NCBI GenBank assembly: GCA_965219575.1
Contig: OZ244779.1
Coordinates: 1,994,585-2,058,584, forward strand
DNA length: 64,000 nucleotides
From: Candidatus Oxydemutatoraceae bacterium
GTDB lineage: Bacteria > Pseudomonadota > Gammaproteobacteria > Poriferisulfidales > Oxydemutatoraceae
Reading direction: 5' to 3'
The translations under genes and the position numbers were made by a program. Shown one piece after another: positions 26,028 to 52,805 of this stretch. The stretch's first letter is position 1; every line of letters starts with the position of its first letter. Under the pieces are notes generated by a model. That model was not told the DNA's origin. It saw nothing but the letters and a program-made list of their open reading frames with translations, and ran no database searches.

Positions 26028-26104
26028 GCGCCCGTAGCTCAGTTGGATAGAGTACCTGGCTACGAACCAGGGGGTCGGAGGTTCGAATCCTTTCGGGCGC
26101 GCCA
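26028..26104 (+). tRNA. tRNA-Arg (anticodon ACG)
   Basis: 77-nt cloverleaf GCGCCCGUAGCUCAGUUGGAUAGAGUACCUGGCUACGAACCAGGGGGUCGGAGGUUCGAAUCCUUUCGGGCGCGCCA, very close to E. coli tRNA-Arg(ACG). Confidence 0.9.
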
Positions 26105-26114
26105 CTTTAAGACC

Positions 26115-27968
26115 ATGAAGTTCGTATTGATAAAAATATTAATTGCCGTCTTCCTAATATGCCGGACATCGTTCTCTTTGTTGTCGGCAAACGAACACGA
26201 CACTTCCGCAGAGGCGCAGCCGCAATCCTCGGAGGTTTATGCGGAACAACTGCAACAAATGATCTCCGAACAGAATAACGCCATCGGGATTTATAAAAAA
26301 CAACTGGACAAACCGAAAATAACGGACTCCGATCTGTTGGTTTTAGCCGAACACCTGATAGCCGAATTGCAAGCATGGATTGAGCTAGACTTACCTTTCC
26401 TCCATTCGGAACGCAGCCTACGCATCAAAGGTTTGCGCAACATGATGACCGCAGCCGATTTAGATGCAACAGAAAAGATACGCCGCATACTAGAAGCCTA
26501 CCGAATCGAAGCCGAATACGGCTTTTCTTTTGAAAGCTATAGAGGAAAACTCGAAGAAGATGATGTGGTCGTCGATTTTATGCACATCGGTAGAAATATC
26601 TTGATCTATAAAAGTTTGGACGGTCGGCAAGTGGGGGCTTGGAACCGACATACATCCGATTGGCATGCGTTAAACAACAGGTATCGCTATCCGGTCGAGC
26701 AGGCTTTTAATGTTGCCCACAAAGGCGTGGCACCCGGGATTTTATTACTGCCCGTCCAGTTGACACAACCTGCCGCACGCAACATTCCTCCCGTAGAACA
26801 GGTCTCGGAAGACACGACGACACCTGCACAAACGCAGCAAACACCTACAGAAATAACGACTTTAGAAACACTGCTCGAAGACAAAAAGCAACAAGCCTCC
26901 GAACTGCAATCTGCGTATTATCGGAAGCTGGGACAAGCAAAAGAACTAATTGCGATCGTCCGCAATACCGCCGAAGAACTGCAAACAATGATCGCCGGAT
27001 CTTTTATACCCTTGTTACTACCCGACTATCGCACCAGCCTGAATCCGCTATTGCAAGACGATCAAATCGTCGACATAGTCCACATCGAAACCTTGCAAGC
27101 ATTATTCATAGAACTTTATAAGCTACAAGCGCAAACGAGTTTCTTCGACACCGAAATAATACTGGAAGACGGCACATCCGCTATGCGAGAAATCGTCCAC
27201 ATAGGACCTTTCAACTTGCTATACGACGACGAACTTCTAAGCTACGCCGCAGCTGTCAATCGCCCCGTCGTGCTAGCCAAATCCCCCAGCCCGTTCTTGT
27301 TGCTGATTGCCGACAGCATTAGCAAAGCCGATCTGGATGTCGGCTTCTTAAGAGCACCGGTAGATCTATCACAAGGTGCGGTGTTGACAACTTTGGATGC
27401 CTCGCTGAGCGTGATGGATCGTGTATGGCAAGGGGGGTGGGTCGCATATCTTATATCGGTACTGGGTATATACGGCATCCTATTGGTGGTGTACAAAATC
27501 GTTCTTTTACGACAATGCCTACGCTCGGTAGAAAAACAGAGATACGCTACCGAATATGACTCCGGCAATCCACTCGGACGAATCTTGAGTATCGCCGATC
27601 TAAGTAGCAATGCGGAAGAGGCAGAATGGCGGATCGAGCAAGCGGTGTTGAGAGAAACACCACTGCTGGAATGGGGCTTCAGTACGATCAAAGTGCTGAT
27701 CATCGCAGCCCCGTTGCTGGGTTTATTGGGAACCGTACTCGGTATGATAGAAACCTTCCAAGCGATTAGTTTATTCGGCACCAACGATCCCAAAATCATG
27801 GCGCAAGGCATCAGCCAAGCGTTGGTGACAACCCTGCTGGGTCTATATGTTGCAATCCCGCTACTATTGCTCTATACCTGGGCGATGTCGTACAACAAAG
27901 AAATACGCAACATACTGGAACACCAAAGCGCAGGGCTTTTAATACAACACGCAAATAGGATAACTTGA
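26115..27968 (+). CDS. TtpC-like long MotA/TolQ/ExbB-family protein with a large N-terminal periplasmic domain
   Basis: Signal peptide MKFVLIKILIAVFLICRTSFSLLSA. C-terminal LLGLLGTVLGMIETFQAI...ALVTTLLGLYVAIPLL (ExbB/TolQ TM2-3). The ORF-track start at 26043 overlaps the tRNA and was rejected. Confidence 0.7.
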   Translation: MKFVLIKILIAVFLICRTSFSLLSANEHDTSAEAQPQSSEVYAEQLQQMISEQNNAIGIYKKQLDKPKITDSDLLVLAEHLIAELQAWIELDLPFLHSERSLRIKGLRNMMTAADLDATEKIRRILEAYRIEAEYGFSFESYRGKLEEDDVVVDFMHIGRNILIYKSLDGRQVGAWNRHTSDWHALNNRYRYPVEQAFNVAHKGVAPGILLLPVQLTQPAARNIPPVEQVSEDTTTPAQTQQTPTEITTLETLLEDKKQQASELQSAYYRKLGQAKELIAIVRNTAEELQTMIAGSFIPLLLPDYRTSLNPLLQDDQIVDIVHIETLQALFIELYKLQAQTSFFDTEIILEDGTSAMREIVHIGPFNLLYDDELLSYAAAVNRPVVLAKSPSPFLLLIADSISKADLDVGFLRAPVDLSQGAVLTTLDASLSVMDRVWQGGWVAYLISVLGIYGILLVVYKIVLLRQCLRSVEKQRYATEYDSGNPLGRILSIADLSSNAEEAEWRIEQAVLRETPLLEWGFSTIKVLIIAAPLLGLLGTVLGMIETFQAISLFGTNDPKIMAQGISQALVTTLLGLYVAIPLLLLYTWAMSYNKEIRNILEHQSAGLLIQHANRIT

Positions 27969-27970
27969 CA

Positions 27971-28489
27971 ATGCATTGGTTCAACCTTGCCTACAGCCCG
28001 TTTTACGAACTCCAGGTGATTCGTGCCGAGGTACTCATCGTTCTGATAATCTCGGCGTTGATTATGTGGGTGCTGATTATAGAGCGTTATTTATATTTCA
28101 TCTTCGTCAACAAACACACACAGGCGCGATACCTACAAAAATGGCAAACAACGGGTAGCAGGGTCGTCGGCGAACGGTGGCTACTCAAATCGTATTACCT
28201 GTCGGAGTACCGCTCGCAAAGCGAGCGAGGCATCGGGTGGATACGGTTGTTCACCAGAATAAGTCTGCTGCTCGGACTATTGGGTACGGTACTCGGTTTG
28301 ATCTCGGTGTTTGAGATGCAACTGCTCGCTGCGTCCAATTTGAACTTAGAAATATCGGGTAACATCGCATTGGCAATCATCCCGACGACAACGGGGCTTT
28401 TAGTGAGCTTATCGGGGCTGCTCTTTGCAAGCCACCTGAGAAGTCTAGCGGACAATGCTATCTCCCGTCTGGACAGCCTATTTATCTGA
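27971..28489 (+). CDS. exbB: ExbB/TolQ-family proton channel
   Basis: SLLLGLLGTVLGLISVFEM...TTGLLVSLSGLLFAS. Confidence 0.75.
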   Translation: MHWFNLAYSPFYELQVIRAEVLIVLIISALIMWVLIIERYLYFIFVNKHTQARYLQKWQTTGSRVVGERWLLKSYYLSEYRSQSERGIGWIRLFTRISLLLGLLGTVLGLISVFEMQLLAASNLNLEISGNIALAIIPTTTGLLVSLSGLLFASHLRSLADNAISRLDSLFI

Positions 28490-28496
28490 TGCCATG

Positions 28497-28913
28497 ATTA
28501 GGAGTCGCCTGAACAAAGCCTATAGACCCGCGTCCGCCGAGGTTGAGATCAATTTGACGCCGATGTTGGATGTGGTTTTCATACTTTTAATCTTCTTTAT
28601 CATCACCGCCTCGTTCGTTCAGGAAACCGGCATCGAAGTCTCATTGTCGCAAGCAGAATCGGCAGTGCCACAAGAAGATAATCCTATCCGGATAAGCATC
28701 GATCGCTACGGCGAGATTCGGATTAAAGACCAAGCGATGGATATTAGAACATTACAAGGTATGCTACGAAAAATGCACCTTGAAAATCCGCAACGCGCAG
28801 TCGTCATACTTGCCGACAAAGCCTCCGACAATGCGAGTTTGGTTAAAGTACTGGACCGGGTTCATCGTGCCGGAATAGAAAACATTGCCATCGCCGCCGA
28901 GTTGGATGAATAA
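28497..28913 (+). CDS. exbD: ExbD/TolR biopolymer transport protein
   Basis: EINLTPMLDVVFILLIFFII (TM with conserved Asp). Confidence 0.8.
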   Translation: MRSRLNKAYRPASAEVEINLTPMLDVVFILLIFFIITASFVQETGIEVSLSQAESAVPQEDNPIRISIDRYGEIRIKDQAMDIRTLQGMLRKMHLENPQRAVVILADKASDNASLVKVLDRVHRAGIENIAIAAELDE

Positions 28914-29511
28914 AATACTACGCTGGCTTATCGCATTGACGATAGCATCGTTGATTAGCTATGCGCTGTTTGCCGCAGTCGGACAGCTTATAGGAACATT
29001 GCGCTATAACAATCCCTCAAATGATCGCCCTGCCGTATCGATAAATTTCCTGCCTATTTATAAAGATGAACCTAAACAGACCCCTAGTGATTCTCCTTCC
29101 GTGCCGGTGCCGGCGCAAACGCTCAACAATAATACCTATAAAGAACAAAGAGACAAATCGGCACCGATAGACGAAAAGCACAAGACCGAAACACCACCGC
29201 AACCCGAACCGCTATCTATCACTAGACATACTCCTGCAAACCGAGACCTTGGCGCAGTCAGCCTGCAACCGATATTTAGAGTAGAACCGATCTATCCGAT
29301 GTACGCAATCAAGCGAGGTATAGAAGGATGGGTGAGCATAGAGTTTGCGATCACCATGAACGGAAAAGTCGTCAACCCCAAGGTTACCGCATCCGACCCG
29401 CCTCGGATATTTGAAAAAACCGCCCTTAAGGCAATCTCTCAATGGCGTTATCCGCTCGGCAACAAAAGCAAATCAAGCGCACATATTAAGTTTGAACTAC
29501 GCGACCGATAG
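28906..29511 (+). CDS. tonB: TonB energy transducer
   Basis: N-terminal TM, a Pro-rich PPQPEP segment, and the C-terminal fold VEPIYPMYAIKRGIEGWVSIEFAI...NPKV. Confidence 0.75.
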   Translation: MNKILRWLIALTIASLISYALFAAVGQLIGTLRYNNPSNDRPAVSINFLPIYKDEPKQTPSDSPSVPVPAQTLNNNTYKEQRDKSAPIDEKHKTETPPQPEPLSITRHTPANRDLGAVSLQPIFRVEPIYPMYAIKRGIEGWVSIEFAITMNGKVVNPKVTASDPPRIFEKTALKAISQWRYPLGNKSKSSAHIKFELRDR

Positions 29512-31026: not shown

Positions 31027-31602
31027 CTAACGGCTTGCTCTCGCAATCGCTTCAAAATCTACGCCTTTATACATAAAGCTCTGTTTTTCAAACAGCTTCT
31101 CTCCGTATTGGGTAACCCAGTCTTTGTGGAAGCTCAAGGTATATTCCGGAGGCGGCATCACATTGAAAATCACATCGTATTTGTCGGTAATCTCGCCGGG
31201 TAATGCCATATTACGCGCATAGTGCAGATTATCAATCAAGTTGATATGCGGTACCAGATCCACATTCGCTATTGCACCGGTCCTCGGATTGATGACTTGC
31301 GCAGTAATAACTAAATACCCGACAAAGCCGCCCGCCGGGGTGCCCTCGGGAGTAGAATCTTCGTCGTCTGCCCAGTTAACTCGTGCCTCTATATGCACAT
31401 GCGTTTTACTTTCTTCCAGATGATAGTTTGCCGGTGTGATTGTATCCTTGACGGCACCTTCAAAGATGAATTGTATACCCGGCTCTATCATCTCTTCGCC
31501 GATGACCAATTCAAGCGCATGCGATTGGGTCATAAACAATACCGAAAGACACAATATAACGCCTCGGTAGAATTTAGTCATCGTTCCAGTTAAAGTTTTC
31601 AT
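31027..31602 (-). CDS. P19/FetP/Tp34-family periplasmic metal-binding (iron uptake) protein
   Basis: Signal peptide. THVHIEARVNW...GGFVGYLVITAQVINPRTGAIANVDLVPHINLIDNLHYARNMAL aligns with the Campylobacter P19 core as recalled from memory (IHLEADIHA...GFWMPYLTIAYEL..TGAIKRGTLMPM..GPHYGANIAM). Confidence 0.6.
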   Translation of the reverse strand: MKTLTGTMTKFYRGVILCLSVLFMTQSHALELVIGEEMIEPGIQFIFEGAVKDTITPANYHLEESKTHVHIEARVNWADDEDSTPEGTPAGGFVGYLVITAQVINPRTGAIANVDLVPHINLIDNLHYARNMALPGEITDKYDVIFNVMPPPEYTLSFHKDWVTQYGEKLFEKQSFMYKGVDFEAIARASR

Positions 31603-31644
31603 TTACTTATCTCCTCTATGTTGGTTTAATGATCCATGCTAATT

Positions 31645-32370
31645 TTATACCCTTTTAAGCCAAAGAAAGACGCCTGTAGCAGAAAGGAACAATAAAAGTA
31701 ACGCTGCGAAATCGGCAATAATAACACCTACGGTACCGAATAGACGACCGCTGTGGAAATCCAGCAATGTGCGTTCCCAGCTTATCAAATGATTATTGGC
31801 GTGCGTAATAATGGTTTCTTTCAAATACATCGGCACTTCCGTGCCGTCGACGGGTGCCGACCATGTTATCTGCTCTCCACTATAAACCTGCCAATCTTGC
31901 AGATATTTATCCACCTGCCAGTTGTTGCGTAGACCGCCGATGATAATAGCACCTTCTCGGTTGTATCCTATCCTACGCATCACGGAGGGCAATCCGTTTA
32001 GAACGGAAAGCCTGTCTACTATCTCGCCGCGTTGCGATAACAACCATAGTTTGTTATCTCCCACAATCCAAACATAGGTTTCACCCTCGACAACACCTTG
32101 TAAATTATTTAGTTCAATGTCGGAGACGGGGAGTCCGTCCATATAGAGGAAAGAGCCTGCTTGCGAAACCCAGCGCTTATCGGTTTTATAATTTACCGTA
32201 TCTTGGCCTTGGATCTTTGCACCGTATAAATAACCGGACAGCGAAGACGAAATATAACGCTGATCTAAATCAAACCACTCGGTATGTTGTATTGCCAATC
32301 CAGTCATCACGAAAATGAATAAAAATATGAAGCTCCCGATGCCTATGCTACGATGTAATTTGCGGTACAT
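31645..32370 (-). CDS. PepSY-associated TM (PiuB-like) membrane protein
   Basis: N-terminal LHRSIGIGSFIFLFIFVMTGLAIQH and C-terminal TVGVIIADFAALLLLFLSATGVFLWL helices typical of PepSY_TM proteins. Confidence 0.6.
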   Translation of the reverse strand: MYRKLHRSIGIGSFIFLFIFVMTGLAIQHTEWFDLDQRYISSSLSGYLYGAKIQGQDTVNYKTDKRWVSQAGSFLYMDGLPVSDIELNNLQGVVEGETYVWIVGDNKLWLLSQRGEIVDRLSVLNGLPSVMRRIGYNREGAIIIGGLRNNWQVDKYLQDWQVYSGEQITWSAPVDGTEVPMYLKETIITHANNHLISWERTLLDFHSGRLFGTVGVIIADFAALLLLFLSATGVFLWLKRV

Positions 32371-32393
32371 AATCGGCTATCATATTACACGGG

Positions 32394-32924
32394 TTATGGT
32401 ACGACCGATTTGTGTAGCATCAGAGCAAGCCTTGCCAGTTTGGTGACCGCACGCACCGACAAAGTGGCACCCGAGATATTGTCTATATTGCGATCGAGTT
32501 TCAAACTGCCGGTTAACTTTGCATCGGTAAATTGATCGGCAAACGAATCATAACGCACTTCCCAGCCACGACTCTCACGAAAAATTAATACTTTGACCTC
32601 TTTGATACGATCTGCATCGATAGAAAAACCACTGGTGATCGGCCGCTCTTTGCCGATCTCTTCCAATATCCAAACACTGCGATTATCTTTAAGCCAATAA
32701 CGGATCCTAAATTTACTATATTTATGACCGAGTATGTTTTTGATGGAGTCTTTAATGGGTTGGTCGGGATAAAGCATAGAAGGCTCGGGAGGATTATCGT
32801 CGAAGTGGCGAGACACAAATGCATCCGGTGCCTCGTAAATACTCTCTATTGCCAAAAGCGGCGCGCGAGGTTGAACGAGTAATAACGCCGCACACAAATA
32901 GAAAGCCCACTTCGATCGGTTCAT
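32394..32924 (-). CDS. FMN-binding domain protein (extracytosolic; predicted ApbE flavinylation substrate)
   Basis: Signal peptide and DNISGATLSVRAV (FMN_bind [S/T]GAT flavinylation motif). Confidence 0.65.
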   Translation of the reverse strand: MNRSKWAFYLCAALLLVQPRAPLLAIESIYEAPDAFVSRHFDDNPPEPSMLYPDQPIKDSIKNILGHKYSKFRIRYWLKDNRSVWILEEIGKERPITSGFSIDADRIKEVKVLIFRESRGWEVRYDSFADQFTDAKLTGSLKLDRNIDNISGATLSVRAVTKLARLALMLHKSVVP

Positions 32925-33288: not shown

Positions 33289-34662
33289 TCAGAACTCATA
33301 ACCGACACCTAAGTTGAAACCGTCGAAATCTTTGTTGCGATCATCTGCATTGTCGTGTTCACGATCTACGAGGTCCATTTTTAGAACCGCACTCTCGTTT
33401 AAGTAATAATTGAAACCCACGCTATATTGGTCAAATTCATCTTGCGAACGTCCACCCTCAACATCTTCGTAGCGCGCAAAGATGCCAAAATTGGGAGTCA
33501 ACTCAAAAGAAGGTTCTACATACCAACCCTGTTGCCGGTCATAGTCGGCAACTTTTATCGGGTTGGGAATCATGGTCCCGGAATTAATAGGATCGTCTAT
33601 TTGGGAGTCCACATCTACATCCCAGGCGGCGTATAAAGCCCTAAGACCGAATGGTCCTCGACCGTAGACAATATGTGCCTCATAAAGTATGGCATCGTCT
33701 ACGGTGTCACGACCGATAGCACCAGTACTCCCTTGGGTGATATCCGATTGATACTGCACACTTGCTGCCAGCTCGAGACCCGGCATCCCGGTGTATTTGA
33801 TACGACCGGTAAACGCAAGGTCGTTGGCAGTGGCATTGGCAGTTTTTTGCCTTCCCGAGCGAAAACGTAATTGAGGACTAGGTACAATCTCAGTATTCGG
33901 TAGAATTGTAACACTACCATCAGGATTGTTAATAATTCTAGAGGTATCTCTGTCATCGTTATCTTCAATAACCCTTGTGTTATAAGCTCTGGCAGGAACT
34001 TCTAATCCTTCGTGCAACGCAAGATCGATGGTGAATCCGTTGTCCATGCGGTGTGTGAAACCGACACCGCCTGCCCACCAGGTCGTCGGAACGATAATGT
34101 TTTCAACGGTATTGCGTTCAACACCGTAAAAAGTCGGGGGTTCATGGGTTTCATTTAGAATACCGACCGGCAACAGAAAAACACCTGCACGAGCGGTATT
34201 GCGTTCATCGAAATCATATTCTATAAAAGCTTGCTCCAGTTCGACTTCTCCCGGTTGACCTTCTCCGGCGAGTGCATGTTCTATCTCAACTTCGGAAAAA
34301 AACCTCAACCTGTCGGTGAACTCATGACCGAAGAATAGCACGAAACGATGAAAGTCTAATTGCCTAAAATTATCACCTTCGTCGCGGCTCCAGTTATTAT
34401 AGTGCAGTTCGCCGTAACCTCCCAGTGAGGTTCTGTCCCAGAAAGAAGATTGAGCACCACTGTACGATTCAACTGCTTCCGCAGTCACTTCAACCGCCTG
34501 TTTATTCTCTTCGACATCTTGATCAATTGCTTCTAATTTCTGTTGCATCGATTCTAATTGTGCTTGCAACGCTTCCATCTGTTGTTTCAGTATACTAAGC
34601 TCATCCGTTTGAGCAGTAACTTGGCAGGGTGCAATCATTAACAATAAAAACAGACTGCTCAT
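33289..34662 (-). CDS. Outer-membrane beta-barrel porin with an N-terminal coiled-coil (DcaP-like)
   Basis: Signal peptide MSSLFLLLMIAPCQVTA. Coiled coil LSILKQQMEALQAQLESMQQKLEAI. Alternating amphipathic strands ending ...FNLGVGYEF. Confidence 0.55.
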   Translation of the reverse strand: MSSLFLLLMIAPCQVTAQTDELSILKQQMEALQAQLESMQQKLEAIDQDVEENKQAVEVTAEAVESYSGAQSSFWDRTSLGGYGELHYNNWSRDEGDNFRQLDFHRFVLFFGHEFTDRLRFFSEVEIEHALAGEGQPGEVELEQAFIEYDFDERNTARAGVFLLPVGILNETHEPPTFYGVERNTVENIIVPTTWWAGGVGFTHRMDNGFTIDLALHEGLEVPARAYNTRVIEDNDDRDTSRIINNPDGSVTILPNTEIVPSPQLRFRSGRQKTANATANDLAFTGRIKYTGMPGLELAASVQYQSDITQGSTGAIGRDTVDDAILYEAHIVYGRGPFGLRALYAAWDVDVDSQIDDPINSGTMIPNPIKVADYDRQQGWYVEPSFELTPNFGIFARYEDVEGGRSQDEFDQYSVGFNYYLNESAVLKMDLVDREHDNADDRNKDFDGFNLGVGYEF

Positions 34663-34867
34663 AAAGCAATAAATTTTTGTTCGCTTTTCATTAAATAGCT
34701 TTTCATAAATATAGACTCCTTTTCTAAATCTAAACAATAATAATAATAATTCTAATTAAAGTTATAAGTAGTGTTATTATTATGGTTATTATTTAGATGT
34801 CAATACCTTTATGAAAATATTTTTTTATAGATATTCAAAGGAGTTTTGGGGGCTTATTTCAAGGATG

Positions 34868-35281: not shown

Positions 35282-35766
35282 AGCACATATGGGGCTATTG
35301 AAAAAGTATTGGTAGCGCAAAAATCCACCCGCTTGCGCCATGAATTTATAATAACCACCAAGCCGTAGGGACAGACCTGTGTGTCTGCCCTAAAGTACCG
35401 TTCTGCACGGCTGGAACCGCTTGCGCCGTATGGTTTTGGTTTCCATAAATCGGGTGGATGAATGTATCAATCGTGCCGACCAACGCGCTACGGGCGGACA
35501 TGCTAGTCCGCCCCTACAACTTTATGAAATACTTTTTCAACAGCCCCACGACACAACCACCCCGTCAGGCTGAATAGAACCGCCGATTGAACCAGCAGGT
35601 CAATCGGCGTGACTTTGTTCAGAACCTCAACATGACTGCTAAACGCATGCATTGCAAAATGCATAGGCCACCCCTCCATAGGAGGGGAATGTACTAGTAC
35701 TACACTTGTGCAAATTTTCCACGACCACCCGTCGGGCTATGCCTACCGCCCCTACAAGGAGGGGAA
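35282..35766. repeat. Mosaic palindromic-unit array
   Basis: Shared modules (GGGACAGAC..GTCTGCCC, GGGCGGAC..GTCCGCCC, CCCCTCC..GGAGGGG twice). Confidence 0.8.
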
Positions 35767-37341
35767 TTAGCTGTCAAAAATTATTCTAAAGCCTAAATAC
35801 GGTGCCTTGAACGAAGCAGGAAGAGGATTTTCAAAATCAATGCGGGCGGTTGCTTCTCCCGGCAGTATGTAATTGCCGCCTTTGGCAATAATCGCAAAAC
35901 CCTGTCCGGCAGTGCTTAGGCTTTGCGTCCATTCCGAAACATTGCCGCCCATATTGATGACACCGGCAGCATTGATATCGCCGTTCTGCTCCAAAGCGGA
36001 GAGCGGTTTCATCAGTTGTCTCTCGGCGGTAGCCACATAGTCGGGATTGAAGGTGTTGCCCCAAGGATAAGAATAGTTACCCATCGAAGAAGCAGCAATC
36101 CATTCGAAACTATTCGGCAATCGTCCGCCGGCCCAATTCGCAAATGCATAAGCCGACCACCAATCTATATCGGTTGCCGGCAAGTCGTCGTTTTGATAAT
36201 CGTCCAACCACGGCGGACTATAATCGTGATCTTCGGGTTCCTTCTCGTTTGCGTAAAGCCCGAAGCGCACTAAAGGGTCGTTGACGAAGCGTCTGTATTG
36301 CGCTCGGGTCACCTCGTGGCGCAATATCCGAAAATCGTTATGGCGATGTTTTTTATCAACCAGTTTTTCGACGATATCGAGTTGTTTGCGGGATAACCCC
36401 GACCCCAATAGTCCCGGTATCTTAGCGTCGTCGGGGAGACCGATACGATACTGCCCTGCATCTACACGTACCGTTTGCGGATGTTTTTCGGTCCACGGTA
36501 TTTTCTTCGGTTGCTCGTCGTAGACACATCTGAAACTCACATAAGGAGAACGATAGTTCGCTTCTACGGTACGATAAAAATTGTTCAAGCCATAAATCTC
36601 GTAGGGTTTGTTATATGCGTTGCCACCGTGTATACTCGGTTTCGCTTCTGCGTCGATACCTTGCGCCCATTCGGATGCAACATTGCCCAGATTGTGTATA
36701 CCCTGCGGTGTATCCATCTCCTTATGCAAACCGCAGCGTTGTGCGGCATTGAGCCTAGGATCCAAATAAGGCCAGCCCTCGGAGTTGAAGTCGTTACCCC
36801 ACGGATAAAGCCGACCTTCGGAACCGCTTGCAATCGCAATCCACTCCGTACGCGTCGGCAGTCGCCCACCGCCCGCTTGACAATAAGCATACGCGTCGTA
36901 ATAGCTAACTCCGTTTGCAGGCGCATCCAAACGACCGCTAATTTTGTGGTCTCGGCTTATGCTTCTATAAGACCAATTTTCAGGTTGTTCGGGATGTGCT
37001 ATATCGGTCGGTTTATAAAGTGCATACCACTTTTCAAAAGTGTAGAAATCTTTTTGCCGCACTTCGCATCGATCGACCCATAAAGGAGGCAATTGCACAC
37101 TGCGCTCGGACTCCTTTAATATCGGATCAAAAGAGCGTATGCGCCCGAAGGCATATAGATAATCGCTCAAAATTGCATCGAGTTGCTCACCACGTGCCTC
37201 AATGGTTTGATCTTGGGATATATCAACCTGCACCGTATCAAATTGATAAAAAGCGGTACGCAGTTCATATAAACTGAATACCGACAGTGCAATGATTATT
37301 GCTGCTACGAATAGACTCCCTAGTAGAGGGGTTAGCTTCAT
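35767..37341 (-). CDS. Tandem FGE-sulfatase/SUMF1-domain protein (formylglycine-generating-enzyme family; GldJ-like), N-terminal TM/signal
   Basis: Two FGE-type modules: YDAYAYCQAGGGRLPTRTEWIAIASGSEGRLYPWGN and WSAYAFANWAGGRLPNSFEWIAASSMGNYSYPWGN, ending APYLGFRIIFDS. Confidence 0.7.
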   Translation of the reverse strand: MKLTPLLGSLFVAAIIIALSVFSLYELRTAFYQFDTVQVDISQDQTIEARGEQLDAILSDYLYAFGRIRSFDPILKESERSVQLPPLWVDRCEVRQKDFYTFEKWYALYKPTDIAHPEQPENWSYRSISRDHKISGRLDAPANGVSYYDAYAYCQAGGGRLPTRTEWIAIASGSEGRLYPWGNDFNSEGWPYLDPRLNAAQRCGLHKEMDTPQGIHNLGNVASEWAQGIDAEAKPSIHGGNAYNKPYEIYGLNNFYRTVEANYRSPYVSFRCVYDEQPKKIPWTEKHPQTVRVDAGQYRIGLPDDAKIPGLLGSGLSRKQLDIVEKLVDKKHRHNDFRILRHEVTRAQYRRFVNDPLVRFGLYANEKEPEDHDYSPPWLDDYQNDDLPATDIDWWSAYAFANWAGGRLPNSFEWIAASSMGNYSYPWGNTFNPDYVATAERQLMKPLSALEQNGDINAAGVINMGGNVSEWTQSLSTAGQGFAIIAKGGNYILPGEATARIDFENPLPASFKAPYLGFRIIFDS

Positions 37342-37559
37342 GGCTTTTTTTTGCCTCCTTTACCTAGGAGCTTACCGCCTTTCATTAGACCGCCGCCTTT
37401 CATCAGACTGCCGCCTTTCATCAGACCGCCGCCTCTCATCAGACCACCGCCTCTCATCAGACCACCGCCTCTTCTCAGACCGCCGCCCATCAATCCACCA
37501 CCACCGGATCTGCCTAGAAACCTAGATAGCAAACGAAATAACATAAACATTCCTCTCAT
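37338..37559 (-). CDS. Gly/Met-rich repeat peptide (GGGLM[RK] x7), translationally coupled to the FGE-domain gene
   Basis: GGAGGA Shine-Dalgarno 7 nt upstream of the ATG. Its stop overlaps the FGE start (ATGA). 18-bp tandem DNA repeats. Confidence 0.45.
   Translation of the reverse strand: MRGMFMLFRLLSRFLGRSGGGGLMGGGLRRGGGLMRGGGLMRGGGLMKGGSLMKGGGLMKGGKLLGKGGKKKP
37381..37500. repeat. 18-bp tandem repeat x about 7 (TTTCATCAGACCGCCGCC consensus)
   Basis: Direct inspection. Open in two frames on opposite strands (Gly-rich on the minus strand, Pro-rich on the plus strand). Confidence 0.85.
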
Positions 37560-37599
37560 AATTTTTCCTCCGCGCTTTTATCGTAAATCTATTGTAAAC

Positions 37600-37807
37600 A
37601 GATTGGCAGCAAAAGAGTGACTGCACAAACTGCCACTTCGTCAGGCGAAGCCTGCCACCCTAAGGGCGGACATACAAGTCCGCCCCTACAGGTGGATTGG
37701 ATAATTATACGGCGCATAGCGGTTGGGTTCGTGCAGAACGGTACTTTTTCAACAGCCCCAATGTACCGACACTGTACTTGTGCAGACACACCACAACCGC
37801 CTCGTAT
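37600..37807. repeat. Mosaic palindromic-unit array
   Basis: GGGCGGACATACAAGTCCGCCCCTAC plus the GGTACTTTTTCAACAGCCCC junction motif. Confidence 0.8.
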
Positions 37808-39550
37808 TTATGCGGTATTTCCGATGAATCTGCGCAACACGCCGAACAGTAGCAACAACGCGGCAAAACCATAGAATAGGAGTGCTTCGTTTTCCTTTCT
37901 ATAAGGGACGCTGGGATAATGCGTCATCACCTGCGTTTGGGCAACGGTTACGCTGTTTTGATCGGCTGCAAACCGCAAACTACCGTCTCGATTGATCGCC
38001 GCATAAACGAAAGCGAGCAGATAATCGTCCCTTTGCGGTGATACGATAGTTGCAATACGCCACCGATATTGATCGGGGTCGGCTTGTTTGCGAGGCAACA
38101 AAATAATACCGTCCTTGTCTAGGTTTATTTTTAAGCCCTTGTAAATTGCCGGATAAAGTCCCACATGCATTCTAACGACGGCATCCCCGGGCAATTCGGG
38201 AAAAGGCATTTGTTGCGGATTATTCAACAGCAAGGCATTTTCCAGCAGTTGGTTCGGATGCACCGCCAGTGCCGTCACATCGTTATCCTCGGTTTGCTGC
38301 TCCACATACAAAGGATTTTTATCGGCACCGGATGTCGGGAACATCACGCTTTTAAGATACTCGTAGAAGTTGAGCTCCTCGTCACTCAATGCCGGCATCA
38401 TTGCCGCAGGTAGCAATATGTCGTCTGCAAACTTGAAATTTTGTAGCATTAAATAATTTCCCTCACCGACAGCGCGTTGTGCTTTTTCCATAAATTGAAA
38501 GAGTGCCGCTAAAATGTTTACATATTCTAGTTCCTCGCCGCTTTCGTCGCCCTCCGACATATTGAGATATACATATTCCTGTTCTTTCTCCGAAGACGAC
38601 TTTGCCGAAGACGGCGTTGCGGTTCTAAACCGCATAACGCTCGGGAAATCACTACTTTGGTTGCCTCGCCCCAAGCTCTCGGCCATCATTTTCGATAACG
38701 CATCGAACATCTCGTCGGCAGGTTCGTCCGATCCTTCCCCACTATACTCTTCGCTTTGAGAGTCGGCATTCTCGGCATCGTAAGCGAGATCGTCGAAGGG
38801 ATAATTTTCATCGCTGGTCACCGCACCGAGCGAAATATCGGCAGGCATATCCTCCCATATATTCTCGTTATTGCCTCCCTCGCCTTCGTTTTCGTTTTCT
38901 CTAAACTGCTCGGAGTTGCCCGGTTGTTCCGAGGCATTTTCGCTTGTTTCATCGGATGCGGCAATGGCTTCTCCCGGACCGGGTTCGCTCTTGTTGTCAT
39001 CTTCTACGGCATTACCGTCATAACCGATGAAGTGCCAATGGCGAGGCATCGGCCCGTAATCTCCGATGATAGACATAGTCAAATAAAACGTACGGATATC
39101 GTAAATATCTATGCGTATATAACTTCTTTGTATAGGATTCATCTTTGCCAAAAATTCATCGAACGCATTATCGGGTTGCAGTAACTCATCGCGACTGAAT
39201 CTCTGCTTGGTGTAATAGTCCTGTATATAATTGGAGTGCAGTTCGATAATCGGCATAATAGAAGGATGCGGATTGGCATCCATAGGACTGTTGACATAAT
39301 CGTGTAGCCTGGCCGGCTGAGAAGTGGGCAGACCGTTCATCACCACCGAGGTTGCCAAATCGCGGCTGAGCAATACCGATATATCTTCTACTTCGCTGAT
39401 ACGCGCCTCTTCTTGTTCGTGCTCGATCATCATCGTAAGCACGATCAAGATGATGATCATCGCAACGCTGTTTGCCAGAATGTCGGCCAATGCAATGCCG
39501 GCAAAGCCGGGAAGTAGGCTTCCTTTTCGTGATTGCGCCGCCGTTGCCAT
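37808..39550 (-). CDS. Large hypothetical membrane protein with N- and C-terminal TM segments and an acidic low-complexity centre
   Basis: N-terminal GFAGIALADILANSVAMIIILIVL (TolR/MotB-like TM with Asp). Central stretch of E/D/S/N-rich low complexity. C-terminal LLFYGFAALLLLFGVL. Confidence 0.5.
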   Translation of the reverse strand: MATAAQSRKGSLLPGFAGIALADILANSVAMIIILIVLTMMIEHEQEEARISEVEDISVLLSRDLATSVVMNGLPTSQPARLHDYVNSPMDANPHPSIMPIIELHSNYIQDYYTKQRFSRDELLQPDNAFDEFLAKMNPIQRSYIRIDIYDIRTFYLTMSIIGDYGPMPRHWHFIGYDGNAVEDDNKSEPGPGEAIAASDETSENASEQPGNSEQFRENENEGEGGNNENIWEDMPADISLGAVTSDENYPFDDLAYDAENADSQSEEYSGEGSDEPADEMFDALSKMMAESLGRGNQSSDFPSVMRFRTATPSSAKSSSEKEQEYVYLNMSEGDESGEELEYVNILAALFQFMEKAQRAVGEGNYLMLQNFKFADDILLPAAMMPALSDEELNFYEYLKSVMFPTSGADKNPLYVEQQTEDNDVTALAVHPNQLLENALLLNNPQQMPFPELPGDAVVRMHVGLYPAIYKGLKINLDKDGIILLPRKQADPDQYRWRIATIVSPQRDDYLLAFVYAAINRDGSLRFAADQNSVTVAQTQVMTHYPSVPYRKENEALLFYGFAALLLLFGVLRRFIGNTA

Positions 39551-39554
39551 CGCG

Positions 39555-40079
39555 TTACTGCCGCTTGATAACGCGATCTATATAAGGCGGGATATCGTCG
39601 AGCGAAACCGACTTTAATAATTCGCGATCGGCGATAATCCAGCCTATGGTCAATCTATCTCGTATCGTAGGCATTGTCAGACGCATACATTCTCGGGCTA
39701 TTGCCATCGTTCTGACACTGCCTTCCATGATGATAAAGATGAGTTGCTGTTTGGGCTTACCGTAAATCTTTCTGGCGTAGCTCGCAAAAGGACTGTTGGG
39801 CGCGCAAATCTGGTCTTGTTTTAAGACATCGCCGCTCTCTACGATGCGCAACTCGTCGGGAAAAGTCAGTATGGAATAACCGGTGCCTTGCACACCCCAA
39901 CTCACTTTGTAATCCCCTTCGTTGTTTATCCCTTCCAAACGCTCCTGCAACGAGAGCTGAGAAAAAGTGTTTATCAGTATAAATAAAACCAATAGCAGAG
40001 CAAAAACACCGCCGAAAATCTCAACCATCGGCGCGTTGTTCTTCTCTTGATCTTTGAGGCTATCGTGACGACGAATCAT
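39555..40079 (-). CDS. ExbD/TolR-like small membrane protein
   Basis: PMVEIFGGVFALLLVLFILI (TM with an acidic residue), then a periplasmic domain. Operon position between the MotA-like gene and the large protein. Confidence 0.45.
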   Translation of the reverse strand: MIRRHDSLKDQEKNNAPMVEIFGGVFALLLVLFILINTFSQLSLQERLEGINNEGDYKVSWGVQGTGYSILTFPDELRIVESGDVLKQDQICAPNSPFASYARKIYGKPKQQLIFIIMEGSVRTMAIARECMRLTMPTIRDRLTIGWIIADRELLKSVSLDDIPPYIDRVIKRQ

Positions 40080-40085
40080 TTCATC

Positions 40086-41126
40086 TTAAGGTCTAACGGC
40101 GAGTATCCGGTTTTCGTAGTTCGTTAGCAGATTGTTCTCCCATCGCTGTATGATGGTTTGTAACAAGGTCAGCACGATGCTCAAAGACAATGCAATCAAT
40201 GTTGTATCAAACGCAATTCCCAGCGGGGCTATCGCATCGCCCAACTGATTAGAGAGATTGGCCAAGCCTTGCTGCTCGCCGATAATCTTTTGTATGCCGT
40301 CGGATGCAAGCGAGATACCATAGACAGTGCCTATAAAACCCAAAATAGGAATAGACCAATTGAAATAACGAGGCAAAATATAGAAATCCGCCGACTTTTT
40401 CCAGATCAAATCGATATAGGTATCCTTCGTTACGGCATTCCGATCATCGAGCAAGCGATGGTAAGTGCGCATCAACAACGAGCGGTCGGGCTTGTTGATC
40501 AGTCGCTGCTCGTTCCATAGCGTATAGCTCTTGCTTAGCAACAGGATCAGACCCCAGCAGAACAATAAAATAGTGAGCGGCGGTATAAATCCACGATCTA
40601 AGAACTTATTCGTCACTACTATTAGATCCGGATAACGAACCGCAGTGTTATAAATCATCAGCAGTATCGTCGTAGATAAGATAGTTGCAACCGCCAATGT
40701 CAGCACTAGGGGGGGACCCGAGAGTATCGATTCAAGTTTGCGCACCAAATCCTGCTGATATTCGGAGGAGGTGTTATGGTTGAGTAATATATAAAATATA
40801 TACAAACCAATGACCGAACTCAATAACGGCAAAGACTTCTCGGGCGTATAACCGTCGGATAGCAAAACCTGATTATTGAGCAACGGGATAAATACCTGAT
40901 AAGTAACGATCAGGCTGATAGCAATCAAAGACAATAATATTAAAAAGCTCAACAGCTTGAGCATCGTCTGTTGTTTTAACATCAGTCCGACAACCGACAA
41001 TAGAGCAATCGCTAGACCTACTCCCAAACCGTTGTTCGCAGAGTAGCCTATGTTAATGCCCAAACTGACAAACGCGGCGGGGAATAGTACAAACGATGTG
41101 ATAATAATGATAATTTGGTTCAACAT
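40086..41126 (-). CDS. MotA/TolQ/ExbB-family proton-channel protein with extra N-terminal TM segments
   Basis: C-terminal IPILGFIGTVYGISLA...LGIAFDTTLIALSLSIVLTL matches the conserved MotA/TolQ/ExbB TM pair. Confidence 0.6.
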   Translation of the reverse strand: MLNQIIIIITSFVLFPAAFVSLGINIGYSANNGLGVGLAIALLSVVGLMLKQQTMLKLLSFLILLSLIAISLIVTYQVFIPLLNNQVLLSDGYTPEKSLPLLSSVIGLYIFYILLNHNTSSEYQQDLVRKLESILSGPPLVLTLAVATILSTTILLMIYNTAVRYPDLIVVTNKFLDRGFIPPLTILLFCWGLILLLSKSYTLWNEQRLINKPDRSLLMRTYHRLLDDRNAVTKDTYIDLIWKKSADFYILPRYFNWSIPILGFIGTVYGISLASDGIQKIIGEQQGLANLSNQLGDAIAPLGIAFDTTLIALSLSIVLTLLQTIIQRWENNLLTNYENRILAVRP

Positions 41127-41194: not shown

Positions 41195-41797
41195 GTGTGC
41201 GTTATGATAAAAATTATTCCCTTAAAAAATTTAACTAATCATTTTATTAAAGGGTATGCTCTGTATCCGCCTTTTCCTGAGGATACCCGAACGGCAATTT
41301 TCGCACTCGGGTGCTTTTGGGGCGCAGAGCGTTGCTTCTGGCAAAAACCGGAAGTTCATCTAACCGCAGTGGGCTATGCCGGCGGAGCGACTGCCAACCC
41401 CGACTATCGGGCGGTGTGTGGCGGTAATACCGGACATACCGAGAGCGTGCTGGTCGTGTATCACGACAATCAAAACACCGATACGCATAGTGTCTACGAA
41501 AAACTGCTCAAGATTTTTTGGGAAACTCACGACCCGACCCAAGGCATGCGACAAGGCAACGACATCGGTAGTCAATACCGCTCCGCGATATTTTGCTTCG
41601 ACGACCCGCAATACCAACTAGCACTAAAAACATGTGAAGCCTATCAAGCCCGTCTAAACCGATCGGGCTACGGACAGATTACAACCGAAATCATTCGCAC
41701 CGCAGATTTTTACTACGCAGAAGATTACCACCAACAATATCTCGCCAAGAACCCCGGCGGCTATTGCGGCTTGGGCGGCACCGGCGTTTGCTTGTAA
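41195..41797 (+). CDS. msrA: Peptide methionine sulfoxide reductase A
   Basis: [16 protein letters not shown] (GCFWG active site). Confidence 0.88.
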
Positions 41798-42876: not shown

Positions 42877-43520
42877 TATGATTGTTCAAAATTAGAATTC
42901 GCTTTGCATTATAAAATATCTCCGACAGTAAGTGCTACATAAAAGGCGATATTCCCCTCCTTTGGAGGGGTGGCAGGCGCAGCCTGACGGGGTGGTCGTG
43001 GCGTGGGGGCTGTTGAAAAAGTATCCACGAACCGTAGGGGCGGACTTGCATGTCCGCCCATGACGCGTTGGTCGGCACGATTTATACATTCATTCACCCG
43101 ATTTATGGAAACCAAAACCATGCGGCGCAAGCGGTTGGTGTCGTGCAGAACGGTACTTAAGGGCAGACACACAGGTCTGCCCCTACAGGTGGGTTGGATA
43201 ATTATGTGGCGCAAAGCGGTTGCAATTGTGCAAACACAGTACTTTTTCAACAGCCCCCGGGGTCTTGCACAATGTCACGCCAATTGACCTACTGGCTCAA
43301 TCGGCGGCTCTGTTCTACCTGTAACGCGTTGCGCCTGTACAATTTATACATTTATTCATCCAATTTATGGAAACTAAAACCATACGGCGTAAGCGATTAC
43401 GGCTGTGAAGAACGACACTTTAGGGCAGACACATAAGTCTGCTCCTACAGGTGGGTTGGATAATTATGCGGCGCATAGCGGTTGGGTTCGTGCAGAACAG
43501 TACTTTTTCAACAGCCCCAG
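42877..43520. repeat. Mosaic palindromic-unit array (long)
   Basis: Multiple GGGCGGAC/GGGCAGAC hairpins, CCCCTCC..GGAGGGG, GCCAATTGACC..CAATCGGC. Confidence 0.8.
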
Positions 43521-46063: not shown

Positions 46064-46550
46064 TCGATTAGCCTATCTTGTCGCTGGATTTTATCATAAT
46101 GAGGCAGATGTAGGTTTTTGAAAGAATACTGTTTGCAAGGATAATGTGTTTACCCACCAAATTTATTTTAACTACCGTAGGGGAATGTGCTTGTGCAAAT
46201 ACGCGGGGACTGTTGAAAAAGTATCCACGAACCGTAGGGGCGGACTGGCATGTCCGCCCGTAGCGCGTTGGTCGCCACGATTTATACATTCATCCACCCG
46301 ATTTATGGAAACCAAAACCATACGGCGCAAGCGGTTCCAGCCGTGCAGGACGGTACTTTAGGGCAGACATCACAGTTGCCGATTGACCTACCGGCTCAAT
46401 CGGCGGCTTTATACTGCCCCTACGGCTTGGTGGTTATTATAAATTCACGGCGCAAGCGGTTACGGTTGCACGCTGACGATACTTTTTCAACAGCCTCACG
46501 CCGCGACCACCCCGTCAGGCTGCGCCTGCCACCCCTCCAAAGGAGGGGAA
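46064..46550. repeat. Mosaic palindromic-unit array
   Basis: Shared modules. Confidence 0.8.
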
Positions 46551-50800: not shown

Positions 50801-51415
50801 CATAACTTATTGAAAATCATATGCAGTTTCATTAAACTATCAGACACAAACAACAACGGTACCACCGCATAAAGGGTGTGCCGGAGCTAACGTATCAAAA
50901 TACTCAACTATAAGGTTTGTAAAACATGAAAATACCCTCGATGACAACATTCGCAACCGTAATGTTAGATGTTTATGTGGCTCACTATCACAAAGATTTC
51001 ATAGCGGATGGATTAGAAGACACAACGGATACTGCATTTTACGACAAAGTAATTGAACTACATCCTAAGTTGGTTGCTGCTTACTATTGCAGGGCCCTAG
51101 TCAGGGGTAAATTAAGAGATGATGCCGGCGCACTTGCAGATTTTGACCATGTAATTAAGTTAGATAAGAAGAATCAAGATGTTTATCATATGAGAGCTTT
51201 CACCAAGAATAAATTAGGAAATTTTCAAGGAGCGATTGTGGACTTAAATAGATTCCTTAAAAAGAACCCTCAGAATAGTTCCGCCTACAATATCCGAGGT
51301 TTTTCTAAATTTAAATTAAGAGACTACAAAGGGGCAGCCAAGGACTTCGACAAAATGATCGAACTAGAACCGAATTATGCTACCGGCTATGATTTTAGAG
51401 GCCTTAATAAAGTTA

Positions 51416-52168
51416 GGTACTTGACTAGTTTAGGGAGTACGATTTGATAAAATAACTAGTAATGACAACACCTAACAGACATTTTAGAAGGGCACATATT
51501 TCAAACAGGAAAATAAGGCAAATTGTGAGGTATTTTGCCCTTGATCTGAGTGCAACCCAAATCGCACAAGCAGCCGGGGTCAATAGAAATACCGCGAATA
51601 GATATGTCAATATAATCCGAGAAAGAATTGCACAACACTGCGAGCAGACGAGCCTATTCTCTGGCGAGGTAGAGTTCGATGAGTCCTACTTCGGTGGTCG
51701 CAAAAAGGGAGACAAAAGAGGTAGAGGTGCACCGAACAAAGTACCGGTATTCGGCATATTAAAAAGAGATGGGAAGGTCTATACGCAGGTGATACGCAAT
51801 GCTTCAAAGAGCGAGATACGACCTATTATCAAGCGTTTAGTGGGACACAGGAGTACTATATACACAGATAAATGGAGAGCTTATGACGGGTTGGTGTTGA
51901 ATGGATACAAACACTACCGCATCAATCATTCAAAGACACTGGGCAGTGGTACTAGACATATCAATGGCATTGAAAACTTCTGGGAATGGGCCAAAAGGAG
52001 ATTAACAAAGTTCTGCGGCGTGTCGAGAAAACATTTCCACCTTCATCTAAAAGAATGCGAGTGGCGATTCAATCACAGACACCTTTCAGCCTCCCAAAAG
52101 TATGAGATGCTAATGAAGATGGTAAGGGATATTTGAGTGGGACTTTGTCCCTAAACTAGTCAAGTACC
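51416..52168 (+). mobile_element. IS1595-family (ISXO2-like) insertion sequence, 753 bp, 8-bp target-site duplication TAAAGTTA
   Basis: Terminal inverted repeats GGTACTTGACTAGTTTAGGGAG / GTCCCTAAACTAGTCAAGTACC. Direct repeats TAAAGTTA at 51408-51415 and 52169-52176. Confidence 0.8.
51462..52136 (+). CDS. IS1595-family transposase
   Basis: N-terminal HTH (LSATQIAQAAGVNRNTANRYV) and DDE region ...TIYTDKWRAYDGL...HSKTLGSGTRHINGIENFWEW. Confidence 0.8.
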   Translation: MTTPNRHFRRAHISNRKIRQIVRYFALDLSATQIAQAAGVNRNTANRYVNIIRERIAQHCEQTSLFSGEVEFDESYFGGRKKGDKRGRGAPNKVPVFGILKRDGKVYTQVIRNASKSEIRPIIKRLVGHRSTIYTDKWRAYDGLVLNGYKHYRINHSKTLGSGTRHINGIENFWEWAKRRLTKFCGVSRKHFHLHLKECEWRFNHRHLSASQKYEMLMKMVRDI

Positions 52169-52805
52169 TAAAGTTATATTGGGAGACTATGAGGCCGCAA
52201 TCGCAAACTTTAGCAAAGCAACCGAACTAGACCCGAAGCATACTACTGCCTTCTATAATAGAGGTATAGTTAAAGACGGATTAGAAGACCATAAGGGAGC
52301 CATTGCGGACTTTGACAAAGCCATCAAACTAAGCCCGGAGTATGCTAACGTTTATAGCAGTAGAGGCATTGTTAAAGAAAATTTGGGGGACGTTGAGGAT
52401 GCTATTGCAGACTTTAACAGAGTAATTGAACTAAATCCCGAAGATGTCGATGCTTACCATAACAGAGGCTTTGCTAAAAAGGTATTAAAAGGCTACGAGG
52501 AAGCTATTGCAGACTTCAACAAAGCAATTGAACTAAACCCTGAATCTGCTTATGCATACGGCAAAAGAGGTACTGTTAAGGAGAAATTGGCGGACTTTGG
52601 GGGGGCGATTGCAGACTTCAACAAAGTGATTGAACTGAACCCGGAATATACAGAGGCTTATCATAACCGAGGCTTTGCTAATGAAAACTTAAAGAACTAT
52701 AAAGCGGCTGTTGCCGACTACGACGAAGCCATTAAACTAGAACCATCTAATGAGATTTTTAGACAGGCAAGGCAGGAGGCGCAACAAAAACTCGATAATT
52801 CCTAA

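Follow-up and report, generated by a model that had tools for sequence, protein, structure and literature searches.

A four-gene cassette resembling a divergent MotA/ExbB/TolQ proton motor in a Candidatus Oxydemutatoraceae bacterium and other, mostly sponge-associated, bacteria

To our knowledge, only a handful of classes of 5:2 proton motors are known, namely the flagellar stators, the Ton and Tol systems, the gliding and type IX secretion system (T9SS) motors, and Zorya. Every new class has revealed a different route for exporting the energy of the inner membrane. The gliding motor AglR-AglQ-AglS of Myxococcus combines one TolQ/MotA-like protein with two different TolR-like partners, AglQ and AglS, which are both small and both keep the aspartate. 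In addition, direct force transduction has been proposed for TolQ-like genes that are accompanied by heterologous proteins in which an Asp-bearing "transpore helix" (TPH) is fused to a globular domain, and the TPH-vWA proteins have been suggested to rotate inside the pentamer and thereby pass the force directly (PMC12204202, section 8). Here, we describe a four-gene cassette (A-B-C-D) found in a stretch of 64,000 nucleotides, hereafter called the window, from a Candidatus Oxydemutatoraceae bacterium (contig OZ244779.1, positions 1,994,585 to 2,058,584). The cassette appears to be an uncharacterised variant of the known proton-motor kind, in which B and C match no named family, and no published description of it was found in our literature searches.

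The cassette occupies 5.4 kb. The original prediction, made from the sequence of the window, had described an operon of five minus-strand open reading frames (ORFs), and all five were found exactly where it had placed them:

40086..41126, minus strand: gene A, 346 aa, ORF confirmed
39555..40079, minus strand: gene B, 174 aa, ORF confirmed
37808..39550, minus strand: gene C, 580 aa, ORF confirmed
37338..37559, minus strand: Gly-Met peptide, 73 aa, ORF confirmed
35767..37341, minus strand: gene D, 524 aa, ORF confirmed

Only 6 nt separate A from B and 4 nt B from C, and a 248-nt gap containing one copy of a dispersed hairpin repeat lies 3' of C.

Relatives were collected by scanning one genome from each GTDB species with a pattern search plus tblastn, an approach that is motif-biased. 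A relative of A was found in 148 species and 80 loci were kept, in the six-frame ORFs of which B, C and D were sought. About 68 of these 80 loci have the genes in the order A-B-C-D, usually abutting or overlapping, and independent gene calls from seven other contexts gave the four genes in order in six cases and A-B-C without D in one. The pairwise-identity matrices of the four proteins are strongly correlated (r = 0.93-0.97, 67 loci), and thus the cassette diverges as one unit. An all-against-all BLAST of the flanking ORFs revealed no conserved fifth gene, the best family being present in 15 of the 80 loci, and the neighbourhoods vary from restriction and toxin genes to glutamine synthetase and polyprenyl synthase. 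The conserved, co-inherited unit therefore consists of four genes and not five: of the predicted gene order the A-B-C-D part stands, whereas the Gly-Met peptide recurs only in locus L007.

Protein A supplies the putative channel of the system, and two of its regions are of interest:

40113..40349, minus strand: residues 260-338 of A, two canonical channel helices (PILGFIGTVxG ... PLGIAFDTTLIAL), aligned with positions 57-126 of Pfam MotA_ExbB
40671..41114, minus strand: residues 5-152 of A, five extra N-terminal hydrophobic helices seen by hydropathy, not present in ExbB, TolQ or MotA

At the level of motifs, A appears to be a very divergent member of the MotA/ExbB/TolQ motor family. The Pfam family MotA_ExbB (PF01618) matches the window protein over residues 260-338 only (E = 0.0027, 17.9 bits, cut-off 22.9), and it matches 21 of 24 A family members, with a best E of 3.4e-5. 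The homologues of A number more than 543, and some of them are named MotA/TolQ/ExbB by NCBI. The PILGFIGTVxG and PLGIAFDTTLIAL motifs are invariant in 84 of 84 homologues, among them residues P260, G263, G266, T267, G270, P301, G303, F306, D307, T308 and T309. We take the conserved Thr and Pro residues to be the Thr and Pro that line the proton path of ExbB, TolQ and MotA (T148 and T181 in ExbB). Hydropathy analysis revealed seven strong segments and a weaker helix at 258-280, which gives about eight predicted transmembrane (TM) helices. The canonical core comprises three of them, and about five TM segments precede it; those at 5-23, 32-50, 56-74, 98-116 and 134-152 are poorly conserved in the family alignment. 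The C-terminal channel helices and the additional N-terminal segments that had been predicted for A are thus both borne out. The cytoplasmic parts are short, with approximately 60 aa between core helices 1 and 2 and approximately 20 aa after the core.

Some further matches of A were recorded in the family-library scans. Residues ~147-194 (window ~40545-40688), a conserved helix region with the motif K..RGIIPPLT, weakly match the NCBIfam family HpsJ, a hormogonium polysaccharide biosynthesis protein, in 10 of 24 A members, including P0058, P0083, P0116 and P0120 (best E = 0.0025, about 17 bits where the cut-off is 260). A literature search on HpsJ returned only unrelated papers. In the library scans of all five ORFs and of whole alignments, hits to SpoIIIAC and SMP_2 were discarded as noise due to TM composition.

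The two partner proteins, B and C, carry the following features:

39960..40028, minus strand: residues 18-40 of B, TM helix with the motif NNAPMVEIFGG
39416..39505, minus strand: residues 16-45 of C, first TM helix, bearing the motif L-A-D-I-L-A-N and a candidate for a "transpore" helix
39026..39253, minus strand: residues 100-175 of C, alpha/beta domain with a predicted TolR-like fold and an invariant H-W-H at its end
38654..39025, minus strand: residues 176-299 of C, acidic low-complexity linker, predicted disordered (predicted local distance difference test, pLDDT, below 50)
37916..38653, minus strand: residues 300-545 of C, helical and beta-sandwich domain, confidently predicted by AlphaFold2 (AF2)
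37814..37900, minus strand: residues 551-579 of C, C-terminal TM helix followed by basic residues (hydropathy 554-572, AF2 helix 551-579)

The membrane carboxylate that defines MotB, ExbD and TolR is fixed on C rather than on B. TM helix 1 of C, FAGIALADILANSVAMIIILIV, has no His and carries an Asp and an Asn. The Asp to which the original prediction had drawn attention, Asp23, proved to be invariant in 77 of 77 homologues, as were L21, I24 and N27; L25 and A26 are likewise invariant in the C family alignment (29 homologues). In B, which has one N-terminal TM helix and a periplasmic domain with a predicted TolR-like fold, residues I21, F22, G23, G24, F26, A27 and L28 of the helix are invariant in the family alignment. 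Glu20, which had been thought to replace the usual Asp, is present in 51 of 81 homologues and gives way to Ala in 28 and to Ser in 2. The TM carboxylate of B is therefore dispensable, and since it is lost in 30 of 81 homologues it would be C, not B, that bears the essential one.

The Glu20 position was also considered as a possible point of contact with A. In a clade of 28 loci (L053-L084 and L024), Ala20 stands for Glu in B, and Arg174, Leu206 and Leu323 replace Lys, Glu and Gln in A; all four positions are predicted to lie near the cytoplasmic face of the membrane. This could reflect a contact between B and A or one clade-level event. The covariation was rejected as evidence of contact, because it separates two clades and a single event may explain it.

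Searches for relatives of the partner proteins gave little. B and its 28 homologues have no relevant match, and C and its 29 homologues have no match, in Pfam (including PF02472), NCBIfam, PADLOC or the sequences of the PDB. The TM helix of B shows a weak register match to the "INLTPMLDV" of ExbD and to the TM helix of ZorB. When a B-family profile was run against 1.84 billion representative proteins, only 51 relatives were retrieved; none of them bridges B to ExbD, the Pfam scan having covered the NHL-repeat hits and two long proteins. The former hits concern residues 44-86 of B (window ~39822-39950), which weakly match large NHL-repeat beta-propeller proteins (E 1e-4 to 1e-7, with 5-8 stretches summed); the relationship was rejected as probably a resemblance of short beta-hairpin motifs. 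Comparisons by hhalign of A with the window's own ExbB, and of B and C with its ExbD, gave the right register but probabilities below 6% (2.7% for B and 0.2% for C); they were not counted as evidence, because single-sequence templates are too weak. No peptidoglycan-binding domain, OmpA-like or other, was detected in B or C, the 580-aa C being the protein for which the original prediction had raised it, and Pfam found no vWA family in either protein.

The AF2 model of C consists of five parts, with a pLDDT of 70 overall and above 85 in the domains. The linker between the two domains is 124 residues long (176-299), differs in length between homologues and forms gappy, unconserved alignment columns; residues 180-330 hold 38 D+E versus 8 K+R. 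The domain at residues 300-545 has no detectable relative among solved structures in a PDB fold search. Each of the 29 aligned homologues has a C-terminal hydrophobic stretch followed by R/K, as do the gene calls of 5 further loci. The acidic region and the TM helix at the extreme C-terminus are thus as had been predicted, although the epithet "giant" was overstated for a protein of 580 aa. Based on positive-inside charges, we infer that B and C are oriented with the N-terminus inside and that the basic C-terminal tail of C is cytoplasmic. A periplasmic location of the bulk of B and D fits the invariant Cys pairs of both proteins, which in B are Cys92 and Cys131.

The fourth gene encodes a tandem FGE-fold protein, the two domains of which had been recognised correctly (FGE-sulfatase, PF03781, two stretches, Pfam E = 2e-48):

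37270..37326, minus strand: residues 6-24 of D, N-terminal hydrophobic anchor seen by hydropathy
36502..37089, minus strand: residues 85-280 of D, FGE-fold domain 1 with four invariant Cys (conservation over 67 homologues)
35779..36480, minus strand: residues 288-521 of D, FGE-fold domain 2, Cys-free, the best Pfam stretch (profile positions 3-254 of 255)

The reading that fits D best is that of a membrane-anchored, non-catalytic and putatively lectin-like tandem FGE-fold binding module. It shares with SUMF1 and its non-catalytic paralogue SUMF2 the FGE fold and the core "AYC..G.RLPTE.EW...YPWG"; more precisely, "AYC..GGRLPT..EW" of D aligns to "AYCTWAGKRLPTEAEW" of human FGE, and the similarity to the PDB entries of FGE (SUMF1), SUMF2 and CalU17 (E ~1e-8) is confined to this core motif. 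In contrast to these proteins, D is tandem, membrane-anchored and encoded in a motor operon. The catalytic Cys pair of human FGE is Cys336/Cys341. D has only four Cys (92, 154, 203 and 272), which are widely spaced, and no two of them lie five residues apart. The active-site pair (CxxxxC) is therefore absent, and because this closely spaced pair is missing the protein is best regarded as non-catalytic. The window protein has no lipobox and no Cys in its N-terminal 91 residues. In the N-termini of six homologues, a hydrophobic helix precedes a conserved L(R/Y)PLW..(F/Y)DT, and a lipobox-like VASC occurs in one of the six.

The reading that we prefer, and hold to be probable by a modest measure, is that A-B-C-D constitutes a self-contained inner-membrane machine on the 5:2 proton-motor principle with an undescribed set of partners. 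A would form a pentameric ring, and the Asp23 helix of C would enter this ring as a proton-carrying axle, either as a C-C dimer or as a B-C heterodimer, an option suggested by the 1:1 gene pair. Proton flow would then drive rotation or a conformational cycle, and the motion would be passed directly, via the long flexible acidic linker of C, to its novel C-terminal domain. The latter may cooperate with D, the lectin-like FGE-fold protein, in acting on a target in the periplasm or the envelope. The C-terminal TM helix of C would re-anchor the transducer in the inner membrane, possibly outside the ring, at the position that TonB and TolA occupy with their TM helices.

Of the described systems, the TPH-vWA transducers offer the nearest parallel to such an arrangement, as a TolQ-like gene is likewise combined with a heterologous pair, and an Asp-bearing N-terminal helix with a linker and a globular domain (PMC12204202). 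However, the globular domain of C lacks any detectable relative and is not a vWA domain, and of the two partners C alone is extended and C alone retains the carboxylate in every genome. Furthermore, the TPH-vWA set has neither the extra C-terminal TM helix nor the FGE-fold fourth gene, nor the near-exclusive occurrence in sponge-associated metagenome-assembled genomes (MAGs). The combination of one MotA-like protein with two TolR-like partners, for which AglRQS had been put forward as a precedent, is supported as far as the make-up goes. The likeness to AglRQS is one of gene make-up, and no genes of a Glt-type envelope complex accompany the cassette.

Several points weigh against the proposed machine. 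Its stoichiometry and the insertion of C into the A ring are what we infer. The A protein of the window scores below the Pfam cut-off and the A family profile matched no PDB chain, while neither Pfam, hhalign nor the profile searches tie B or C to ExbD/TolR. Each of the four proteins appears to have its anchor in the inner membrane, and the cassette encodes neither an outer-membrane nor a peptidoglycan-binding component. We know of no precedent among 5:2 motors for a transducer anchored twice in one membrane. There are also exceptions to the gene order: in L001/L006 and L005, which represent two Porisulfidus species, D does not adjoin A-B-C, and L018, L038, L041 and L048, from high-GC Azotimanducaceae or Pseudomonadales, carry A only. 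The A-only copies are orphan or decayed. In L001/L006 and L005 synteny stops exactly at the stop codon of C (L001 13321 / window 37806) and gatCAB follows, which points to a rearrangement with its breakpoint here, by which D was separated or removed. The break adjoins a hairpin-containing element, and these Porisulfidus genomes are 92% identical to the window.

As had been predicted, the cassette fits none of Tol-Pal, ExbBD-TonB, MotAB or Zorya, and the alternatives drawn from known systems can be weighed against this background. A Zorya-like anti-phage or abortive-infection module, the motor of which would sense an envelope perturbation by way of the periplasmic FGE-fold domains and those of C and then signal inward or collapse the proton-motive force (PMF) through an open channel, is unlikely. 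It would account for a non-flagellar, MotAB-like pair with a patchy distribution across lineages, and for the best, sub-threshold NCBIfam/PADLOC hits of A and B, namely NCBIfam ZorA_2 in 13 of 24 A members (best E = 9.5e-4), PADLOC ZorA1 against A (E = 0.006) and weak ZorB matches of the B TM helix (PADLOC ZorB1, E = 0.04; PDB 8qyd_F, E = 1). Restriction, toxin-antitoxin, methyltransferase, AAA or transposase genes are also found near the cassette in L002, L004, L001 and the window. These scores, however, are far under the cut-offs (ZorA_2 12.4 bits versus 100), other neighbourhoods consist of housekeeping genes, and tblastn searches of phages with A and of plasmids with C gave no match. A long tail is characteristic of ZorA. 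The ~60 aa and ~20 aa cytoplasmic parts of A leave no room for one, B has no detectable peptidoglycan-binding domain, and the flanks contain no conserved ZorC, ZorD or ZorE gene and no other conserved effector gene such as one for a nuclease or helicase. A trans-envelope apparatus of the T9SS or gliding type for surface motility or secretion, the former suggested in the original prediction, with A in the role of GldL/AglR, C of GldM and D of GldK/GldJ, appears decidedly unlikely. Its attraction is that a motor gene, a long periplasmic partner with a single N-terminal TM helix and an FGE-fold protein also occur together in GldKLMN (PorKLMN) and GldJ, to which can be added the AglRQS-like composition, the short HpsJ resemblance of A in 10 of 24 members, which points to the hormogonium polysaccharide system of cyanobacteria, and a faint hit of D to GldK (TIGR03525, E = 6.4e-4). 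The original prediction had cited GldJ in this connection, but the analogy did not hold beyond the shared FGE fold. The GldK hit reaches 19.1 bits against a cut-off of 350, and the D of the window is a tandem protein with a TM anchor and no lipoprotein signal, unlike the single-domain lipoprotein of the gliding system. A, B and C gave no hit to Gld families in NCBIfam or Pfam, C has no structural match to GldM/PorM or to any PDB entry, and the flanks show no conserved GldL, GldM or GldN and no conserved gene for a secretin, a beta-barrel or any other outer-membrane component. The cassette is carried by Proteobacteria and Spirochaetes, not by Bacteroidota. The charged pair of GldLM consists of a Glu on GldL and an Arg on GldM, whereas here the carboxylate is placed on the single-TM partner.

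A divergent Ton/Tol paralogue, in which A and B would take the parts of ExbB and ExbD, and C that of a transducer like TonB or TolA, serving an outer-membrane receptor or envelope-integrity function encoded elsewhere in the genome, is distinctly improbable as well, in spite of several resemblances. The two channel helices of A bear the Gly-Thr / Thr-Thr / Pro signature of ExbB and TolQ, an N-terminal TM helix and a predicted TolR-fold domain occur in both B and C, C shares with TonB and TolA the layout of TM helix, long linker and globular C-terminal domain, and the genes are closely packed in a single operon. A porin lies ~1 kb downstream in the window and a TonB-dependent receptor near the L087 locus. 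On the other hand, A differs in its short cytoplasmic loop and in about five additional TM helices at the N-terminus, and the Asp is carried by the long transducer-like C rather than by the small ExbD-like B. The His-containing SHLS motif is a marker of TonB/TolA (PMC12204202), and it is missing from the first TM helix of C, which has Asp and Asn instead. Neither Pfam nor the fold search detected a TonB_C or TolA C-terminal domain in C, which ends in a second TM helix. In addition, B and C have no PF02472 sequence membership, the operon includes a dedicated FGE-fold gene, no receptor gene is conserved nearby, and the window already holds a complete TonB2-type set, the true TonB of which Pfam detects at E = 2.3e-16. 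The two outcomes that the original prediction had named as speaking against it, placement of the genes in a known Tol/Exb family with a TonB or TolA domain and an FGE gene unlinked in other genomes, did not arise, the FGE gene being linked in ~68/80 loci. Lastly, the cassette might be a periplasmic enzyme system, with D as an active FGE/EgtB/PvdO-type oxidase or maturase whose activity or substrate delivery would be coupled to the PMF. Sponge symbionts are rich in sulfatases, and the two strong FGE-sulfatase domains (E = 2e-48) and partial hits to SenA and EgtB would agree with this. We nevertheless find it very improbable, given that D lacks the active-site Cys pair and that its domain 2 is Cys-free; the SenA and EgtB hits reach 63-70 bits against cut-offs of 360-420 and cover the FGE-fold part only, and no sulfatase or DinB-domain gene is conserved nearby.

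The basic, Gly-Met-rich peptide, which the original prediction had included in the system, appears to be a lineage-specific small ORF and no part of the conserved system. It is present only in the window and in L007, a "Candidatus Porisulfidus" MAG (OZ244052.1) with which the window is collinear at 93-97% identity, and it is absent from all 86 other loci. Scans of Pfam, NCBIfam and PADLOC gave no match. Its translation signals were described correctly: GGAGG lies 7 nt before the ATG, and the TGA overlaps the ATG of D (ATGA). An 18-nt in-frame tandem repeat makes up 6.3 copies at 37375-37487, and the L007 ORF has ~3-4 repeats (~11478-11585) in the same frame and with the same start and ATGA overlap. 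Between the window and L007, which is a 97% relative here, the only differences in the first 28 codons are two synonymous changes. The ORF may restore translational coupling to D after an intergenic insertion. An insertion of ~150 nt (~37658-37805) carrying the hairpin is found in the window only and is missing from the collinear L007:

37664..37686, minus strand: core of the hairpin repeat, GGGGCGGAC-N6-GTCCGCCC, in the gap that separates C from the peptide ORF, extraneous to the system

This intergenic repeat has 23 matches at about 15 sites in the window, with 0 expected by chance. The sites include 4446-4625, 10330-10353, 12147-12170, 21056-21079 and 35491-35514, and further 37664-37686, 43037-43183, 46237-46260, 56609-56716 and 63154-63629. 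Another copy lies ~250 nt downstream of D.

With regard to the surroundings of the operon, A is the third MotA/ExbB-family protein of the window, as had been noted; the other two are within a TonB2-type cluster, which is complete:

26043-29511: TonB2-type cluster, consisting of a DUF3450 + MotA_ExbB protein (641 aa), ExbB (174 aa), ExbD (152 aa) and TonB (208 aa)

This cluster lies upstream of both a Fe2+-transport / PepSY_TM / FMN-binding set (31027-32924) and the porin (33289-34737). Directly upstream of A, msrA (PMSR) is found in divergent orientation (window 41195-41797, L001 9318-9923, L085 6246-6818). An upstream ORF family on the opposite strand, possibly msrA, is common to 15 of the 80 loci. 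A scan of the operon for promoters and terminators gave counts at or below the shuffled expectation. Elsewhere in the window, an IS1595-family transposase ORF (51462-52136) stands between two TPR-repeat ORFs (50926-51447 and 52179-52805), and its insertion may have split one TPR gene in two.

All 80 loci come from uncultured organisms and nearly all are labelled as MAGs. The carriers are Gammaproteobacteria of several orders, Deltaproteobacteria and one Spirochaetales MAG. Most loci without a Candidatus name are in bins (SB06xx, COS, IRC, RHO, STY, PNG, Langseth, LS_SOB, Plut) that presumably stem from sponge or coral studies. At least 28 loci bear Candidatus names (Porisulfidus, Oxydemutator(aceae), Azotimanducaceae, Poriferihabitaceae and Spongiihabitans). 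These taxa are reported in the literature from sponge metagenomes, as for the genus Porisulfidus (PMC12988363), except that no paper was found on Oxydemutator(aceae); Azotimanducaceae are also reported from non-sponge samples. The near-restriction to sponge- (or coral-) associated MAGs is an observation from a motif-biased scan rather than an established enrichment. It suggests a role of the cassette at the host-symbiont interface or in envelope maintenance in the sponge habitat. Beyond the self-contained inner-membrane machine favoured above, A-B-C-D might represent a new class of 5:2 machines, the axle of which would be a doubly anchored transducer of new fold with a lectin-like tandem FGE-fold partner, and which would have spread horizontally as a cassette among unrelated sponge and coral symbionts to serve life in the host, e.g., by remodelling or sensing a host-facing surface. 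We regard this wider proposal as possible but rather doubtful.

The cassette would add another class to the 5:2 motors, and its make-up is unusual in several respects. The channel subunit is predicted to have about eight TM helices, the small partner would leave the proton-carrying residue to a long transducer-like protein, no relative is known for the output domain, and a putatively non-catalytic FGE-fold protein is encoded by an obligatory fourth gene. The field of sponge symbiosis has very few testable molecular determinants. Given that the cassette is found almost only in sponge-associated MAGs of several lineages, it is a candidate marker of sponge symbiosis and may provide a mechanistic handle on it; being small and self-contained, it lends itself to synthesis and to tests in a heterologous host.

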